A stretch of 28,590 nucleotides of DNA from Promethearchaeota archaeon (lineage in GTDB: Archaea; Asgardarchaeota; Lokiarchaeia; Sigyniarchaeales; SOKP01). Position numbers and translations under genes: made by a program. The stretch is from NCBI GenBank assembly GCA_016930515.1, contig JAFGGO010000011.1, forward strand, positions 1 to 28,590, read 5' to 3'. The notes under the pieces were generated by a model. It made no database searches. It was given only the letters and a program-made list of their open reading frames with translations, and was not told the origin of the DNA. Shown one piece after another: positions 188 to 19,563 of this stretch (position 1 is the first letter of the stretch; each line of letters opens with the position of its first letter).

Positions 188-3100
188 TTAAATCATCTCA
201 TCAAGTTCTTTTAATTTCTTCTTATTTATGTGATAATAGACTTTATTCCCCTTCGAAACGATATCAAAACTTTCAAGCTTTTTCAGATATTTCTTGATCG
301 TGTTATAATGCATGCCCAATTCTTGTCTCATTTCAGTAAAGTGGCATCCTTCCGAACACGATAACATGTATTCTAAGATTGCCCTCGTTTTTTTTTGAGA
401 TAAGAAATGGATGATTTCAGCGTTATCGTACGATTTTAACACATCAAAGTAAGCGTGTTGATTTCCCATTTTTTCAACACGGACGAATTCAAATCTCTCT
501 AACATCTTTAGATGCCATCTCACCACGGTCCTGGGTAGCCTTGATTTCTTCACGAGCTTGTTAAAGTGGACACCAGGATTGGTCTTGATGAGCTCAAAAA
601 CGACTTTTCTATTTTCGTTTTCTAAAACGTTTTCTCTCGTCAAGATTGAACCCTCTACCACGATATTCTTTTCCACGAGCGATCTCATAATTTTTCTCAC
701 TCCATCAGCGTTCACATTGATAGATGCTTTTGCAAATCGTGAATTGAGGTAGGGTACGATATTCACGGGATCGAATGTCCTGTGCTTCTCGATATATTCC
801 CGGATCATGTCTAAGGCTAGTCCTTCGTGTACTAATACATCGGCTTCTTCAGCGCGCTTGCGTTCAACTGGAACGGGAACAACTTCAGAGCCTGACACGA
901 GCTCTTGAGTGACCTGAGCGCGTTCGCTTGGCGAAAAGGACAACAAATCGCGCACAAAATCCTTCTTTAATTCGCCTGAGAACCCTAGATTGTCGATTGA
1001 TTTTAGAAATTTTTCCGAGACAATGGTAAGTGGTTTTTCAGAGGCATTTGCGATTACATCCGGAGAAATGTCTGCTTTAAAAAGCTTCAGTAACTCGTCT
1101 TTATTGCTTAAATCCTGCATTATCTCTGAAGCAGGCTTGCTCGGGAGGCTTAATTCTTCTACTTTCTTTCCTTTAAGGTTCTCTCCTTTCTTTTTCTTTA
1201 TCTTCTGCGATGCTTTTTGCGACGCTTTTTTAATAATCTTGGCTCCTTTTTTCGAGCGATATACTAAATAGGAAGTAGGCACGGCCATAGTTCCAGTTAT
1301 ACCTGCAGATATAGCGATAATGGTTAATACACCTAATGGGTCTTCTCCTTTTTCTTCTTCTTCTTTTTCTTCTTCTTGAGGGTTTACTGGTTGAACATTT
1401 ACCGTGATCTCCTTTATTTGGGTTGCGGATTGTCCATTCCAATCAGTTACCATAAATGTAATATTATAAATACCCTGTGAAGAATAGACATGAACGGGGT
1501 TTCTTTCCGTGGAAGTTGTTCCGTCTCCAAAATCCCAATGGAAAGTTGCGTTTGGGTTGCCTTCCGAACCCAAGAAGAGGAACCTTATTGGACGCCCTTC
1601 AAAAATATCTGTTTGGTTTGTTTCAAACAGGGCGATGGGAATTAAATCTTCAAGCACTTCAATGAAGTTTAAAAGCGCAGTCGAGTTGATATCTCCGTCA
1701 ATATCGCTCACGCTAACATTCACGGTATAAATTCCAGGAGCCTCATAGCGATGTACGGGATTTTGCTCGGTAGACGAATGACCGTCTCCAAAATCCCAGT
1801 AATAAGTGATTTCTTCGTTTCCTCCCGTTCCGTTGCAAGCAAATTGTATAGAATGTCCTTCAATGAGAAGTGAAATGTTGAATTCAAGATCGACGATGCT
1901 TGGAAGGAGATCCATTATTGGAAAGTCGTCTTGACTTCCCGACGATCCACTCAAATTATATGGAGTGTCACCAATCCCAAAAGGTGCTACAGTATCGTTT
2001 CCTGCATAATTTCCATAGAGATTTCCCAACGATCCGTTGTTCCATCGATTATAAGCCCCACTATCTCTAGCGTTAGTAGTGCCATTTGCCCCATTTTCTA
2101 CAAAAAAATTGCGATATATCGTGTTATTATTGTCTCCAAAGAGAAATTGAATGCCGTTTAGTGTGCAATCTTTAACGACATTTTTATATACGAGATTATT
2201 TGTATTGTCGTTTATAAATGCGATACCGGACCAATTAACACCAACAATCCTGTTTTCCAAGAAGCGGTTGTAGCTTGAGGACTTAGAACAAATACCGCAT
2301 AGTTGGTTAAAGGTTGCTAAATTCTGGGCTTCGTTTCCCATTATCGTGTTGTTATCACAATTATCTTCTACATTTATGCCATACCTATTATCGTTGAAAA
2401 TGTTGTTCGAGATCGTGTTATTCCTGCATTCAGAATAAAGATTTATTCCATTTTGGCGGTTATTGCTCGCGTTATTGTTAATGATTTGATTGTAATCAGA
2501 ATAATATTCAACTCTCATTCCATGGGCACTATTATTTGATGCTATATTCTGCACGACCGTATTGTTATTGGAATAATTCAATACATATATACCACCCCCC
2601 GTTTGATGATTAGCCACATTATTCGAGATCGTATTGTTATTAGAAACTATGAAATATATTCCAGTACCAGTATTTTTTGTTATATGATTATTTGATATGG
2701 TATTATTGTCGCTTCGATACAGACGCACTCCCATTGCACCGTTATAATTTACGATATTATTGGAAATAGTGTTATTATAACACGAGTTGTACAAGTAAAT
2801 GCCATTACCTTGATTGAAGGAACAATTATTATCCACGATAAAACCGTTAGATACATTTACGAGTAATAATCCCGCATCGCTTGCTGATCCTCCTAGACTT
2901 GAATTAAATAGCGTACAGTTTCTCACGATAAAATATGCGTTTGAATCGCAAATTTCAATACACGGACTTGCGTCTTTACCATTTATCGTAATATTCTCTA
3001 TAACATAAGGGTTGTCTCTCGAACCATTTCCCGTCCTACACCAATCCTGCGTTCTCGCCCAGGACCAATTGAATGCCCCGGTATCGTTAATATAAATTGG

Positions 3101-3304
3101 ACTTGTAAGCACCCAATAATCTGAGGTCCTTGTATCCTTTAGTGAAAGAGAGGAATTGAGTTGCTTAGGTGTTCCTCTAATTCCACCAATAAATATTTGT
3201 GCAATTAATAACATAAAGAACCCGCTTGCAAGTAAAAGTCCTTTCTTATTTCTGATAACCTTCCAGTGATTTCTACGTTTCCTAAATAAAAGTTTTGATT
3301 TCAT
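188..3304 (-). CDS. Membrane-anchored protein: signal/TM, NosD/CASH right-handed beta-helix, two PKD domains, TM helix, cytoplasmic winged helix-turn-helix (ArsR/HVO_0163-like) domains
   Basis: Asn-rich repeats (GIYLxxSxNNTIxNN); NosD-like 'NRWNNGSLGNLY...GIGDTPY'; two 'WDFGDG..ST..NPVHxY...GIY' PKD motifs; TM 'LGVLTIIAISAGITGTMAV' followed by a Lys-rich stop-transfer; C-terminal 'LENENRKVVFELIKTNPGVHFNKL...WHLKMLE' and a second HTH. Confidence 0.9.
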   Translation of the reverse strand: MKSKLLFRKRRNHWKVIRNKKGLLLASGFFMLLIAQIFIGGIRGTPKQLNSSLSLKDTRTSDYWVLTSPIYINDTGAFNWSWARTQDWCRTGNGSRDNPYVIENITINGKDASPCIEICDSNAYFIVRNCTLFNSSLGGSASDAGLLLVNVSNGFIVDNNCSFNQGNGIYLYNSCYNNTISNNIVNYNGAMGVRLYRSDNNTISNNHITKNTGTGIYFIVSNNNTISNNVANHQTGGGIYVLNYSNNNTVVQNIASNNSAHGMRVEYYSDYNQIINNNASNNRQNGINLYSECRNNTISNNIFNDNRYGINVEDNCDNNTIMGNEAQNLATFNQLCGICSKSSSYNRFLENRIVGVNWSGIAFINDNTNNLVYKNVVKDCTLNGIQFLFGDNNNTIYRNFFVENGANGTTNARDSGAYNRWNNGSLGNLYGNYAGNDTVAPFGIGDTPYNLSGSSGSQDDFPIMDLLPSIVDLEFNISLLIEGHSIQFACNGTGGNEEITYYWDFGDGHSSTEQNPVHRYEAPGIYTVNVSVSDIDGDINSTALLNFIEVLEDLIPIALFETNQTDIFEGRPIRFLFLGSEGNPNATFHWDFGDGTTSTERNPVHVYSSQGIYNITFMVTDWNGQSATQIKEITVNVQPVNPQEEEKEEEEKGEDPLGVLTIIAISAGITGTMAVPTSYLVYRSKKGAKIIKKASQKASQKIKKKKGENLKGKKVEELSLPSKPASEIMQDLSNKDELLKLFKADISPDVIANASEKPLTIVSEKFLKSIDNLGFSGELKKDFVRDLLSFSPSERAQVTQELVSGSEVVPVPVERKRAEEADVLVHEGLALDMIREYIEKHRTFDPVNIVPYLNSRFAKASINVNADGVRKIMRSLVEKNIVVEGSILTRENVLENENRKVVFELIKTNPGVHFNKLVKKSRLPRTVVRWHLKMLERFEFVRVEKMGNQHAYFDVLKSYDNAEIIHFLSQKKTRAILEYMLSCSEGCHFTEMRQELGMHYNTIKKYLKKLESFDIVSKGNKVYYHINKKKLKELDEMI

Positions 3305-3799
3305 AGTTTATCCCAATTCTCAGTCTTGAGTAAATCGTTCAATTATTTTTCAATCCCAATTGAAAAATTTTAGATGGCATGCTAATAAAATTACTCAAGC
3401 AATATCAATGTTAATTTATATTAAAAACACTCAAAGGATTATTTAAAAGGATATAGAACGATTTTGAAATAAATTTTATTCGGAATCTCTCAAATACGAA
3501 ATATATTGATTATTTATTAGTTATCCCAGTTTTAATCCTCCTAAATTAGTTTTAGCGATAAAAAAAGGCAAGATCGCTCTGAACCACGATTTTACGGGCT
3601 TTTTAATTATTATCTTTAGTGTGTTCTTAAGTTAATTTTTTACGTGTATTTAAGATAGATGTGTTTTTCAATACAATTGGATGAATCCCTTTTTTATTGT
3701 CCTATAAAACCAATTTGAACGAACCAACCAGCGATTTAAAAAACATTTATTTGCACGGAGTCTTATATTTAGGTAATATTTAAAAGTAAGGGAAAGATC

Positions 3800-4246
3800 G
3801 TGATATTTGACTGTATCGTGGCGTTGACCAACGACAGGGTTGGTCTCTGTGCGTTTGATTTTTACAGCTTTGGGCACATTTGCTTGGGAATAGCCGTGTT
3901 CCTATTCCTTTCGTTATTCTACACGATTCCAAAATACAAGGGAGATACTCCTTATGTAGCCTTGGTGCTGGTTTTCATCGTAACTCTCGCACTCTTGATA
4001 TTGTGGGAAATAATCGAGAACACGCTCTTTTTCGAATTAGGCTGGAAGTTTGAAAATCGAAGGGATAGCTCCCTAAACATCTTCACCGACATCCTTTTTG
4101 GAACGCTCGGCGCCATTGGAACGTGGCTCATCTGCCATTACGTTTTTGTCAAGGAGAAAAAGATATGGGGCTATTACGCTTTCGGATTAATCGCATTTCT
4201 CGTCTGGTTGATATTATTCTTCGTGACGGAACACTTTACCGTTTAG
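3800..4246 (+). CDS. Integral membrane protein, DUF2585/VanZ-like (putative membrane metal-dependent hydrolase)
   Basis: Four hydrophobic helices with 'DFYSFGH', 'WEIIEN' and 'DSSLNIFTD' motifs. Confidence 0.7.
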   Translation: MIFDCIVALTNDRVGLCAFDFYSFGHICLGIAVFLFLSLFYTIPKYKGDTPYVALVLVFIVTLALLILWEIIENTLFFELGWKFENRRDSSLNIFTDILFGTLGAIGTWLICHYVFVKEKKIWGYYAFGLIAFLVWLILFFVTEHFTV

Positions 4247-11933: not shown

Positions 11934-13298
11934 ATGGATGACATACAAAAAACGGCATTAGAAGCGAGAAAGGAAGCATCTTTTCTATTAAAAGCCTTTT
12001 CTCATCCCGTTCGAATTGAAATTCTAGCTTACCTTTACAACGGTGTTAAAGAATTTCCAGAATTAAGCGATAAGATTAATTTAAGTAAAACAGCCTTGGT
12101 TAAACATCTTAACATGCTAATGGAAAGAGGCGTCATAATTAGAATAGAAAGAAGTAAGTACGAAATCACTCAAGACGGAAGAGAAGTGTTTTTTTCGATA
12201 ATAAACGCATATCGAAAAACTCAGATGAGATTTAGGAGCGTTCAAAAGCAATTGTGGTCTCAATACATGCCAAAACCTCAGATAAGTGAAAGGAACGACT
12301 CAAATCGATTTATAGTTAATTTCCCTGCCGAATACATTCCTGGATGGTTGTCTTTTAATTCGTGCCTTACAGGAGTGTTAAATTCGCTTGGAAATAAATA
12401 CGAAAAATATCAGATTGGGGGACACGACGGAACTGCTTTTTTTATAAATGTATTAAAAGGATACACTTGTCCTTCTGGCCCGTCTAATTTATGTCCGATG
12501 AAGGATTTCTACGAGGGAATCAGAGATTTAGGATGGATCGTGAAAGAGTATTACGAATTTCAATCGAGAGAAGTAGACGAATCGAACCATAACAACGAGA
12601 AGTTTGAGCGCTTGTTTGGGAAAGTGAAAGAAATACTTATTGACACCAATCGTCCCGTCATTCTCTGGGGAATTCCCATACCCGAATACGGAGTTGTAAA
12701 CGGATTCAATAAGGACGAATATATCGTTTCCACATTTCGAAGGCACGCGCCTGAATATTTTGGAATGGACGATAATATTAAATATGACGAGATCATTACT
12801 CCAGGGCGGTTCCAAATGCTCTATTTCGAAAAAGGGACGGAAAAACTCGATCAGACTTCGGCCGATATTAACGCCATTAAAAGATCAATAAAAATGTTGG
12901 GACAAGACAAATCCAGAGCAGGATATGTAACTGGTCCTGAGGCGTTTAAAGAGTGGGCGAAAGTTCTCGAAGGGGATATTGAGAATGTTTCCTATCACGG
13001 AAATAGTTATGTTGGTATTTGTACATTAGAATCAGTCGGTCTAGCTTCGCAATTTCTTTTCGATCTTTCCAAGAGTTATTCTAAGACCAAGGAGGGCGCA
13101 TTATTTAACGATACAGGTTCTATTTACAAACAAATTCAAAAGTTAATACAAGAATTTGTACATATTTTTCCTTTTGCATTTGATGGGGATTTAAGCAAGA
13201 AAAAGCGCGAAAAAGGAGCGGAAATTCTAAGAAAAATTCATCCCAAATTATCTTCTGTTAAAAAGAACTTAATTGCAGTAAATAACATTTGGGATTGA
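11934..13298 (+). CDS. ArsR-family winged-HTH regulator fused to a large uncharacterised C-terminal domain
   Basis: 'LKAFSHPVRIEIL...LSKTALVKHLNMLMERGVI...YEITQDG' N-terminus; about 330-aa C-terminal domain. Confidence 0.85.
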   Translation: MDDIQKTALEARKEASFLLKAFSHPVRIEILAYLYNGVKEFPELSDKINLSKTALVKHLNMLMERGVIIRIERSKYEITQDGREVFFSIINAYRKTQMRFRSVQKQLWSQYMPKPQISERNDSNRFIVNFPAEYIPGWLSFNSCLTGVLNSLGNKYEKYQIGGHDGTAFFINVLKGYTCPSGPSNLCPMKDFYEGIRDLGWIVKEYYEFQSREVDESNHNNEKFERLFGKVKEILIDTNRPVILWGIPIPEYGVVNGFNKDEYIVSTFRRHAPEYFGMDDNIKYDEIITPGRFQMLYFEKGTEKLDQTSADINAIKRSIKMLGQDKSRAGYVTGPEAFKEWAKVLEGDIENVSYHGNSYVGICTLESVGLASQFLFDLSKSYSKTKEGALFNDTGSIYKQIQKLIQEFVHIFPFAFDGDLSKKKREKGAEILRKIHPKLSSVKKNLIAVNNIWD

Positions 13299-13383: not shown

Positions 13384-14508
13384 TTAGGAGGATATGCAAT
13401 TTAGAGCGTTTTGTATTTCTTGCTTGACTTCATCATCAGTTCTCTTAAGGAAATTTTCCAAGGCTTTTTTCGCATCCAGACCTCCGATTCGCCCCAATGC
13501 CCAAGCGATTAAACACCTTACTCTATCATCTAAATTCTCTTCGAACGCACGGACAAGCTCAGGAACATATTTTGGATCCAGAGTATTTCCCATTACTCGA
13601 GCTACATTCATCTTCCAGCGCCATATTTCGTCCGATTTCATATAAAACATGTGAGGTCGAATTTTAGAGTCAAAATATTCCACATCCATGTGTAATAATT
13701 TCGAGAGTTCAAAATCCTTTTCCTTCTCAAGCGCTCTCTTGTTAAGCGACTTTTCTTTTACTAACCAAGGTTTATTGCGAGGGCACACGTTTTGACACCG
13801 ATCGCACCCATAGACCCACAAGCCCATTGGTTCTCGGAGCTCTTTTGGAGTCGGGCCCGTTCCGTAATACGAAAGGTACGAAATGCATCGACGAGGGTCT
13901 ATTTTTCTCGGTCCTTTTAAGGCACCTGTGGGGCATGCAATGATACAAGCGTTTTTACACCACTCGGGGCACCCAATTTCGGTCGTTGGCTCGTCTGGTT
14001 CAAACATCCGATCGACAACAAGCGGTATGGGCGACACCCAAGATCCTTTAAGTGCCACTTTTCTCGAATAAAACAAGCAATTCTTGCCAAATGTCCCCAA
14101 TCCTGCCCTTGCAGCTGCCAATCGATGAGGAGAATAAGGGGCAAAGTGAGAATCAATGCCGTTATCCTTGAGGTAAGCGCGAAATGCCTTGATTCGAGGG
14201 TACAGCTCGTCCTTAGTTTCTCTATCGTCGTCGATATAGCATCGGCCAAAATGATTTTCCAACGATTTCGGAAAATCCTGCGAGAAATAATTCTCAATTA
14301 AAACTATAATCGACTTACCGGTTTGAAGATAATGGGTGGGATCAATGCCCTCATTCAAGTCTGCGCCTTTTTCTGAAATCCAAGCGTATTCTTCTTGTCT
14401 TGAATTTAATAAATCAACCTGCTCTATAAAAGGCTTTACGGTCGTGAATCCAATGTCAGCAAATCCTAGCTCTTTCGATTTTTCGATTATATCTCCTTTT
14501 GATACCAT
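13384..14508 (-). CDS. queG: Epoxyqueuosine reductase QueG-like cobalamin/[4Fe-4S] protein with C-terminal HEAT repeat
   Basis: 'ELGFADIGFT', 'AAARAGLGTFGKN', 'CIIACPTGAL', 'RRCISY', 'YGCDRCQNVCPRN', 'AWALGRIG'. Confidence 0.75.
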   Translation of the reverse strand: MVSKGDIIEKSKELGFADIGFTTVKPFIEQVDLLNSRQEEYAWISEKGADLNEGIDPTHYLQTGKSIIVLIENYFSQDFPKSLENHFGRCYIDDDRETKDELYPRIKAFRAYLKDNGIDSHFAPYSPHRLAAARAGLGTFGKNCLFYSRKVALKGSWVSPIPLVVDRMFEPDEPTTEIGCPEWCKNACIIACPTGALKGPRKIDPRRCISYLSYYGTGPTPKELREPMGLWVYGCDRCQNVCPRNKPWLVKEKSLNKRALEKEKDFELSKLLHMDVEYFDSKIRPHMFYMKSDEIWRWKMNVARVMGNTLDPKYVPELVRAFEENLDDRVRCLIAWALGRIGGLDAKKALENFLKRTDDEVKQEIQNALNCISS

Positions 14509-18306: not shown

Positions 18307-19563
18307 CTAGATCTTGTAGCTAATCACAGTCTGGCGCAAGAGTTCAACATAGTCTCTGAGGTGTCTGGTCATTAGAAAGTTCTTTTTCACGTGTTCCTTA
18401 CCCGCCTTTCCCATTTGTTTCGCAAGAGCAGGATCTTTCAAGAGTTTAAGTACTCTATCTGCACATTCACCCACATTATTAACTAAATATCCTGTCTTTT
18501 CATCAATGACTTGAAGGGGAATACCGCCCACATTACCCCCCACCACTGGCGTTTCTTTCCATAAAGCTTCGCTAACTGTCAGTGCAAAACCCTCTCTTAT
18601 CGATTTTTGAATTACTACTTTTGAATATCTTTGTAATGCATTTACTAACAAGCTACTCTCGGCCGTGCTCACGGTAATATCAGGATCGTCCTTGACATGT
18701 TCAATGAGTTGCTCGTATATGACCTGCCCCTCGGGATCGTCTTGTGCCATATTACCTAAAAGAACCAAGCGACAATCGAACTTCTCCTTTATTAGTTTGA
18801 AAGCTTCGACAACACCAATAGGATCTTTCCATGGATCAAAGCGCGAGATTTGAGAGATAATTGGTTTATCGGTTTCGATTCCGTATTTTGATAAGTAATG
18901 TTCGATTCTTTCCTCACTTAGTTCACAATTTTTATCGTTAAACGGTGAAATTGAAGGTGGTATTATAGTTTGAGGAAGCTTGACCAATTGCTTGTATTTA
19001 TCCATCGATACTATCATCGCATCGTATTTTTCAAGGTATTTTTTTAAAAAATTCCATACATAAGCATTCCGGCGGGAAATGTCAATATGACACCTCCATA
19101 TCCAGGGTTGTCGTTTTTTATAAAACTCAATTATTGGTAAGGGTTGTGGATCGTGTATTATCACGCAATCAGAATGTTCCAAATGATTATAAATTGAATT
19201 TCGCTTGTTAACTTCCAAATATATTCGTTTTCGATTTTTCGATAGTCCCTTTCGGCCACCTTGTAATGCATTATGAATAATCTTTGTGGTAGTAAAGAAT
19301 TCGGGAGTGCCCTTGATTTGATGCCATTCGGCATCTATGCCAAGCTCATTCATCATTACTACCAAATCATTGAGGATTTCTACAACTCCGCCACCATATA
19401 ATGTAGAATTCACATGGATTATTCTTTTATCATATAAAGGTTTTGCTAATTTAATGAGATCGCTGATTTCAGAATATCCTACCTCAGATGCAAACCTCTT
19501 CAGCAAGTTTTCTGAGCCACTGTCTTTAATCATGTCTTTTAAATACATTGGTAATTCCTTCAA
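18307..19563 (-). CDS. treT: Trehalose synthase TreT-type GT4 glycosyltransferase
   Basis: 'HVNSTLYGGGVVEIL', 'HNALQG', 'IHDPQP', 'WRCHID', 'SRFDPWKD', 'QKSIREGFALTVSEALWK'. Confidence 0.9.
   Translation of the reverse strand: MKELPMYLKDMIKDSGSENLLKRFASEVGYSEISDLIKLAKPLYDKRIIHVNSTLYGGGVVEILNDLVVMMNELGIDAEWHQIKGTPEFFTTTKIIHNALQGGRKGLSKNRKRIYLEVNKRNSIYNHLEHSDCVIIHDPQPLPIIEFYKKRQPWIWRCHIDISRRNAYVWNFLKKYLEKYDAMIVSMDKYKQLVKLPQTIIPPSISPFNDKNCELSEERIEHYLSKYGIETDKPIISQISRFDPWKDPIGVVEAFKLIKEKFDCRLVLLGNMAQDDPEGQVIYEQLIEHVKDDPDITVSTAESSLLVNALQRYSKVVIQKSIREGFALTVSEALWKETPVVGGNVGGIPLQVIDEKTGYLVNNVGECADRVLKLLKDPALAKQMGKAGKEHVKKNFLMTRHLRDYVELLRQTVISYKI

Follow-up and report, generated by a model that had tools for sequence, protein, structure and literature searches.

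A predicted archaeal surface receptor with a winged-helix tail as the fused form of a two-gene Asgard module

How could a single protein sit at the surface of an archaeal cell and also control genes within it? Very little is known about how the cell surface of Asgard archaea is linked to gene control, and one gene of a Promethearchaeota archaeon (assembly GCA_016930515.1) raises the question directly. We studied a stretch of 28,590 nucleotides, positions 1 to 28,590 of contig JAFGGO010000011.1, which we call the window. At positions 188-3304 on its minus strand lies a continuous open reading frame (ORF), stop codon included, that encodes the 1038-aa protein P0001; all parts of P0001 are given below in window positions and lie on this strand. 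An initial annotation, made from the sequence alone, described P0001 as a one-component contact- or glycan-sensing system in which extracellular modules, a transmembrane helix and a winged helix-turn-helix array form one chain. The single chain is real. However, P0001 appears to be the covalently fused form of a receptor and a regulator that are usually encoded by two genes. On balance, we think it probable that P0001 is a membrane-held regulator inhibited by a small docking domain (hereafter, the dock) between its transmembrane helix and its winged helices.

Homology searches separate the cytoplasmic tail of P0001 into two parts. We compared aa 655-1038 with 1.84 billion representative proteins. 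Over its whole length, the tail is matched by fused proteins only, namely P0002, P0003, P0004 and P0006; another fused protein, P0005, was found in a separate earlier search. Residues 822-1038, which hold three winged helices (wH1 to wH3), match hundreds of short proteins, 267 of them at E <= 1e-10. Many of these triple-winged-helix relatives are soluble proteins of about 220 aa, and many others are about 350 aa long with two N-terminal transmembrane helices. Residues ~722-811 separately match the C-termini of membrane proteins such as P0115 and P0116, and on both of their contigs a PF24266 protein of 220-225 aa is encoded 17-29 nt downstream. The same order holds in all 13 foreign loci (P0115, P0116 and 11 more from other genomes of the family), where a dock-ended receptor is followed by a triple-winged-helix gene within about 6-60 nt.

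The dock itself (aa 722-806; 887-1141) was described in the initial annotation as a helical linker. An alignment of 28 copies, together with structural models, instead defines a conserved domain of about 85 aa, built of six short helices, which forms the C-terminal end of the receptors in split relatives. Residue F783 is invariant, and K780, E794 and R795 are nearly so. Unfused receptors end just past the dock, whereas fused genes run on through a linker of about 15 residues, V/P-rich and then basic (aa 807-821; 842-886), into wH1. This linker occupies the place that the stop codon, intergenic gap and start codon hold in unfused pairs. The dock has no match in Pfam or the PDB. An AAA+ lid-like small helical bundle was considered as its fold and rejected, as the best Z score of 5.3 in a wide VIA-align search falls within the chance range for helical models. 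In P0115 and P0116, two docks stand in tandem at the C-terminus (L001:6852-7394 and L002:623-1135).

The module is abundant in the source genome (4.0 Mb in 190 contigs, 94% complete, 5.3% contaminated), where profile hidden Markov models identify 19 dock ORFs and about 23 clear triple-winged-helix ORFs. Four of the 19 are fused (contigs C172, C27, C45 and C98), and 13 of the 15 unfused docks adjoin a triple-winged-helix gene on the same strand, most with gaps of -10 to +28 nt. A transmembrane helix precedes the dock in every one of the 22 dock ORFs examined. The initial annotation had proposed a search of Asgard genomes for the same tail on different ectodomains, and such variety is what we observe: receptors carry a NosD beta-helix, an SBBP propeller, an Ig-like Big_7 domain or nothing recognisable. 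On contig C157 (G000:C157:22269-29196), three short dock ORFs (168, 286 and 279 aa) cluster with one 282-aa triple-winged-helix gene, and here the regulator lies upstream, not downstream, of the nearest dock gene.

Beyond this genome, the module is matched in 303 of 400 genomes of the phylum; within the window's family, 133 of the 134 genomes sampled have it. Relatives come from Promethearchaeota, Hermodarchaeota and a Hodarchaeota archaeon, all of them Asgard. Among the 150 best matches listed, a dock and winged helices are spanned without a stop codon only in the four of the source genome; the other spanning matches contain stop codons and are thus two genes. A related-locus search with the single protein returned only 3 close loci. 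As judged from these searches, the module appears specific to Loki-type Asgard archaea and its fused version rare. The initial annotation had named homologues that are always split into two genes as fatal to its reading; six proteins are in fact fused, although most homologues are split.

The rest of P0001 fits the description of a receptor. Its N-terminus (aa 1-42; 3179-3304) consists of a basic n-region of 22 aa and a hydrophobic core of about 19 aa, with cores of 18-23 aa in homologues. A right-handed parallel beta-helix rich in N-x-S/T sequons follows (aa ~95-440; 1985-3022), recognised by the Pfam families NosD (107 bits) and Beta_helix (103 bits) and by eight PbH1 repeats in NCBIfam. The NosD copper-maturation family TIGR04247 scores 72.7 bits against a cut-off of 300, and P0001 seems to have in common with NosD proteins just a generic beta-helix. 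Two PKD domains come next (aa 468-548; 1661-1903 and aa 556-635; 1400-1639), with PKD_4 and PKD each matched twice (aa 483-543 and 556-635). An acidic stalk (aa 640-656; 1337-1387) leads to the transmembrane helix (aa 657-680; 1265-1336), behind which a Lys-rich juxtamembrane stretch (aa 681-721; 1142-1264), modelled with low confidence, connects to the dock. The claim that surface part, membrane helix and array form a single chain is thus borne out by one intact ORF, by the Pfam domains and by six fused proteins that share about 47-55% identity. To judge by the type of its ectodomain, P0001 may sense glycans or contact.

Hydropathy marks two segments, aa 24-42 and aa 657-675, and the sequence around the second is strongly asymmetric. 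Of 32 sequons, 31 lie ahead of it and 1 behind, and the net charge is -7 in the 15 residues before it and +4 in the 15 after. The same asymmetry of charge and sequons across the membrane is repeated in four homologues. It implies an extracellular position for the large N-terminal part and a cytoplasmic one for the tail, as the initial annotation had placed the winged helices; an array outside the cell is not what these signals indicate. The N-terminal segment may be either a cleaved signal peptide or an uncleaved anchor. In the latter case, P0001 would be an ordinary sensor with two transmembrane helices and not a type-I receptor.

What would the dock do? To examine its relationship with the regulator, the last 108 aa of the receptor of an unfused pair on contig C151 were modelled with the neighbouring 224-aa protein, with an alignment supplied for each. 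The complex is predicted with a median interaction prediction score from aligned errors (ipSAE) of 0.78, whereas none of the 3 controls exceeds 0.00. Among solved complexes, 58 of 80 attain the ipSAE mark used, and among mismatched pairs 2 of 110 do; these counts are rough since custom alignments were used. At least 73% of the contacts are common to the runs, and the predicted local distance difference test (pLDDT) of the partner is at least 67. We know of no similar complex, so that a pass from the model's memory is unlikely.

The predicted interface consists of the wH1 helices and regulator residues 106-119, which are the recognition helix of wH2. The contacts of lowest error join W112 of the regulator (W930 in P0001) to F78 of the dock (F783 in P0001). 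The former is near-invariant and the latter invariant, and the W-H pair to which the tryptophan belongs is near-invariant across paralogues. In the terms of P0001, the predicted interface covers W930-H931 of wH2 and excludes the recognition helix of wH3, which as a whole lies outside the interface in the C151 pair. The prediction supports a model in which the dock binds the regulator and covers the recognition helix of wH2.

Is the triple-winged-helix array a DNA binder? An AlphaFold2 (AF2) model of aa 676-1038, based on an 86-row alignment, has a mean pLDDT of 86 and reaches about 97 across the last 215 residues. It settles in favour of three the count that the initial annotation had left at two clear, possibly three, winged helices: wH1 (aa 822-892; 629-841), part of the predicted dock-binding face; wH2 (aa 893-960; 425-628), ArsR-like, with the near-invariant W930-H931 in its recognition helix; and wH3 (aa 961-1038; 191-424), also ArsR-like, with the recognition helix MHYNTIKKY. 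PF24266 (HTH_HVO_0163_N) matches aa 897-963 with 41.7 bits (cut-off 31), HTH_24 is matched with 24.6 bits (cut-off 21.9), and ArsR-type HTH stretches in NCBIfam extend up to aa 1034. For HVO_0163, the sole mention that we found in the literature is a listing in an acetylome.

In structural comparisons, wH3 superposes on ArsR (6j0e_B) with a Z score of 12.5 and a root-mean-square deviation of 1.4 A over 79 residues, and wH2 on CzrA (1r1u_A) with a Z score of 11.7; across ArsR, CzrA and SmtB the two domains score 10.8-12.5 and have the ArsR-type winged-helix fold. Further structural matches are MarR, MecI, Fur, Phr and TFE. By sequence, the best PDB match of the array is 5duk, a 'putative DNA binding protein' (E 1e-8), followed more weakly by Sso10a-2, TFE and Lrs14. 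Both recognition helices follow the ArsR-type pattern x-H-L-x-x-L. There is good evidence that the array is a DNA-binding type of domain; from its fold and family, it would be expected to bind DNA.

Alternatively, the array may not be a transcription factor. It could bind proteins instead, as an adaptor or scaffold between surface proteins and the machinery of the cytoplasm, with its 'recognition helices' making protein contacts. The predicted dock interface, which uses the wH2 recognition helix with its near-invariant W-H pair, fits this alternative, and so do the whole-array Foldseek matches, which bind RNA or protein (E 1.6e-3 or weaker, TM-score <=0.41). However, winged helices taken singly match DNA-binding repressors much more closely (Z 10-12.5), both recognition helices are of ArsR type, and that of wH3 is free in the predicted complex. 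The arrays are also basic, with net charges of 0 to +21 in all 18 triple-winged-helix arrays of the source genome. Finally, the first halves of the recognition helices are identical within the fused clade and differ between paralogue subgroups, as expected for differing DNA specificity. We therefore consider an adaptor role unlikely. As folds for the whole tail, SelB, Rpc34, ScpB and ESCRT-II were not adopted; their Foldseek matches are weak, with nothing at E <= 0.001.

We favour a dock-inhibited regulator, and the following sequence of events may be envisioned. The first part of the module would be a receptor with a variable glycosylated ectodomain, one transmembrane helix, a basic stretch and a C-terminal dock of about 85 aa; the second would be a basic protein of three winged helices. 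By binding wH1 and the recognition helix of wH2, the dock would retain the regulator at the membrane and mask one of its DNA-reading surfaces, an occluded and presumably inactive state. A change in the ectodomain, caused by ligand, contact or clustering, could then loosen the dock and free wH2 and wH3 for DNA. In split pairs, the loosened regulator would leave the membrane. In the fused protein, it would stay on a tether of about 15 + 45 residues and act on membrane-proximal DNA, much like ToxR or CadC, unless a protease frees it. Because the dock is a dedicated domain and the module comprises two genes, the primary logic would be sequestration or occlusion of the regulator, and not necessarily cleavage.

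Several points weigh against this interpretation. DNA binding is deduced from fold and family, the ArsR subfamily model NF033788 scores 41.3 bits against a cut-off of 55, and tandem winged helices are also found in proteins that bind protein or RNA (SelB, Rpc34, ScpB, ESCRT-II). The complex score expresses a model's confidence in a paralogous unfused pair, C151, and not in P0001. In addition, the model gives no route by which a signal would pass from a single-pass helix to the dock, and if the module serves to release its regulator, a fused version that never comes free would be a curious arrangement.

The last of these points invites a second alternative, in which the fused regulator is released by Notch-like proteolysis. 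The ectodomain would be shed, a presenilin homologue would cut the transmembrane stub, and the dock with its triple-winged-helix tail would be freed as a soluble regulator. Indeed, a fused regulator can leave the membrane only if it is cut. Presenilins cut type-I stubs, and the orientation of the P0001 helix, N-terminus out and C-terminus in, fits such a substrate. The source genome encodes a presenilin-family protein of 347 aa (G000:C76:52863-53906, plus strand; PF01080 at 44.9 bits, above the cut-off) that closely resembles eukaryotic presenilin in its WD(IFAVLYKKGP), GIGD and PGLP motifs. PF01080 is matched in none of 14 control prokaryote genomes, and presenilin homologues have been reported earlier in Loki and Heimdall genomes (PMC7997004). 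The genome also holds one S2P/M50 protease, while its 94%-complete sequence yielded no match to rhomboid (PF01694) or to the archaeal presenilin/SPP family (PF06550); the PF04258 search was uninformative, as control genomes also lacked a match. Thus a predicted type-I orientation and a presenilin-type protease occur together in one genome, with the proviso that the N-terminal segment may add an anchor.

The composition of the membrane helix bears on the same alternative. The initial annotation had suggested that its small residues would suit intramembrane cleavage, and the helix of P0001 is indeed 57% G/A/S/T/P. In four fused copies the fraction is 0.52-0.61, compared with 0.17-0.52 in split receptors. 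However, the ranges overlap, with two split receptors reaching 0.52, and the fused values come from non-independent copies of one clade, so the difference is a trend. Intramembrane cleavage may occur, but these features do not amount to support for it.

Other observations speak against proteolytic release. Neither a cleavage site nor a sheddase or a processed fragment is known, and in most family members the regulator is a separate protein that can be released without a cut. An uncleaved N-terminal anchor would make P0001 a sensor with two transmembrane helices and not a type-I substrate, and a freed tail would keep its inhibitory dock. The relatives of about 350 aa (many of P0009-P0062, and G000:C48:2937-4001 on the plus strand) carry the triple winged helix directly after two N-terminal transmembrane helices, with an outer loop of about 60 aa and without a dock; a few relatives have 6-8 transmembrane helices. 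By their sequences, the two-helix relatives suggest that the array often works permanently tethered, an arrangement that is common in the family. Given these points, Notch-like release seems improbable to us. The dock model accounts for gene linkage, conservation and the predicted interface, and thus for more of the data than cleavage does.

The fusion itself has a single origin. In a tree of 76 triple-winged-helix units, the six fused proteins form one clade with a Shimodaira-Hasegawa-like approximate likelihood ratio test (SH-aLRT) value of 100, nested among the regulators of unfused pairs, which indicates that the fusion arose once and later diversified to 47-55% identity. P0004 and P0005 were found in another sample and fall together with the C45 copy, so that some duplications appear to have preceded the split from the organism or organisms of that sample. 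The neighbourhoods of these two genes show no common theme: GH3 and GH31 genes accompany one, PAS, MCP and Hpt genes the other. An artefact, through chimeric assembly or through loss of the stop codon between two neighbouring genes, would be in keeping with the usual state of the module, two genes in exactly the same order, and with the position of the P0001 gene 187 nt from the contig end, but it is hardly credible and is ruled out by the diverged copies: four complete fused paralogues (51-55% identity) on four contigs, a fifth paralogue cut by a contig end and two further fused proteins from another sample, with the dedicated linker of about 15 aa in common and grouped in one clade. On the evidence of these sequences, the fusion is old and real. 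The fifth paralogue (G000:C116:1-3906, minus strand) has a P0001-like N-terminus and has lost its C-terminus at the contig end.

The paralogues also have an upstream element in common. A block of about 43 nt with a TATA-like box, ATTTCAA-N-CTATATCCTTTTAAATA-N-CTTTGA, lies at 3428-3470 of the window on the minus strand, 152 nt before the ATG of P0001. It recurs before the other four paralogues (G000:C45:~14065-14107, C27:~101710-101752, C116:~4015-4057 and C98:~18395-18437), and its TATA-like TTTAAATA is flanked by TCAA...TTG(A). The 16-nt core CTATATCCTTTTAAAT has exactly two copies in the 4-Mb genome, 152 nt before the start of P0001 and 174 nt before the C45 copy. Its only occurrences with one mismatch are 170 nt upstream of the C27 copy and 137 nt upstream of the C116 copy, and the version before the C98 copy has three mismatches. 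Observed mismatches total 4, compared with 8-11 in shuffled controls.

This block has been kept while the proteins are just about 50% identical, which implies selection. As a candidate promoter or operator, it points to shared regulation of the paralogues, perhaps through the identical recognition helices of the proteins themselves, in which case the fused genes would be auto-regulated. Elsewhere, a degenerate pattern of the element has 0 matches among the genome contigs searched, and in 135 genomes of the family a search allowing 2 mismatches returned only unrelated recurring sequences. So far, the element thus appears specific to the source genome.

How does P0001 compare with known systems? 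By the operational definition of Demey et al. (2023), a recognised DNA-binding domain and at least one transmembrane segment, its sequence would make it a transmembrane transcription regulator (TTR). Like the TTRs, which include proteins of the ToxR and CadC type, P0001 combines a DNA-binding-type domain and at least one transmembrane helix in one polypeptide, with the sensor outside and the DNA-binding domain inside. In the census of Demey et al., 367 of 404 archaeal species possess TTRs, mostly single-pass proteins that number about 4 per genome; the paper makes no mention of Asgard archaea, PKD domains or the architecture of P0001 (PMC10269533). The order of parts is reversed relative to ToxR and CadC, which have an N-terminal OmpR-type winged helix-turn-helix and a C-terminal periplasmic sensor, and P0001 has no Pfam match to Trans_reg_C. 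P0001 differs further in its beta-helix and PKD sensor of about 610 aa, in its three ArsR-like winged helices and in the dock between membrane helix and output. ArsR/SmtB and PF24266 proteins resemble wH2 and wH3 in fold and recognition-helix pattern, but they act as homodimers of one winged helix, whereas P0001 holds three in tandem in one chain and falls below the NF033788 cut-off.

For the split form, the closest logic is that of anti-sigma factors and their extracytoplasmic function (ECF) sigma partners. In pairs such as RseA-sigmaE and RsiW-SigW, a single-pass protein uses a small cytoplasmic helical domain to cover the nucleic-acid- or polymerase-binding surface of a partner encoded next to it, and such pairs have expanded into many paralogues per genome with varied outer domains. 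In the module described here, too, a membrane receptor adjoins the gene of a soluble partner. However, the two systems are unrelated in sequence and fold. Anti-sigma domains are N-terminal and their topology is opposite; the partner in our module is a winged-helix protein, the receptor gene comes first, and release by a protease cascade is a feature of the anti-sigma systems. To our knowledge, archaea lack sigma factors.

The fused form invites comparison with Notch and other substrates of regulated intramembrane proteolysis. These, like P0001, have a large glycosylated ectodomain, a single transmembrane helix with its N-terminus out and C-terminus in, and a transcription-related C-terminal tail. 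Unlike Notch, to which it has no homology, P0001 has a DNA-binding-type array, together with an inhibitor domain, built into the tail itself. One could envision a broader scheme in which shedding and a presenilin-homologue cut send the tails of fused receptors to DNA, a prokaryotic Notch-style pathway, while the split pairs form an archaeal counterpart of anti-sigma and sigma factors. We regard this scheme as quite unlikely.

The genes that neighbour P0001 in the window give no functional hint. At 11934-13298 on the plus strand, the window encodes a 454-aa protein with an N-terminal winged helix of ArsR/HTH_45 type and a long C-terminal part without a family match. ARAGORN reported no tRNA genes in window positions 1-28590.

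We found no description of the module of dock-ended receptor and triple-winged-helix regulator in the literature that we searched. Given its wide distribution, many copies and varied ectodomains, it looks like a major surface-sensing system of this lineage. The fused genes are a natural Rosetta stone, indicating that receptor tail and regulator act together, and they delimit two small domains that lend themselves to studies of their mutual binding, their structure and their binding to DNA. Since this genome also encodes a eukaryote-like presenilin, the fused form offers a tangible case in which to ask whether receptor tails released by cleavage arose before eukaryotes did. If true, presenilin release of its tail would amount to a Notch-style pathway from receptor to gene in the lineage closest to eukaryotes.

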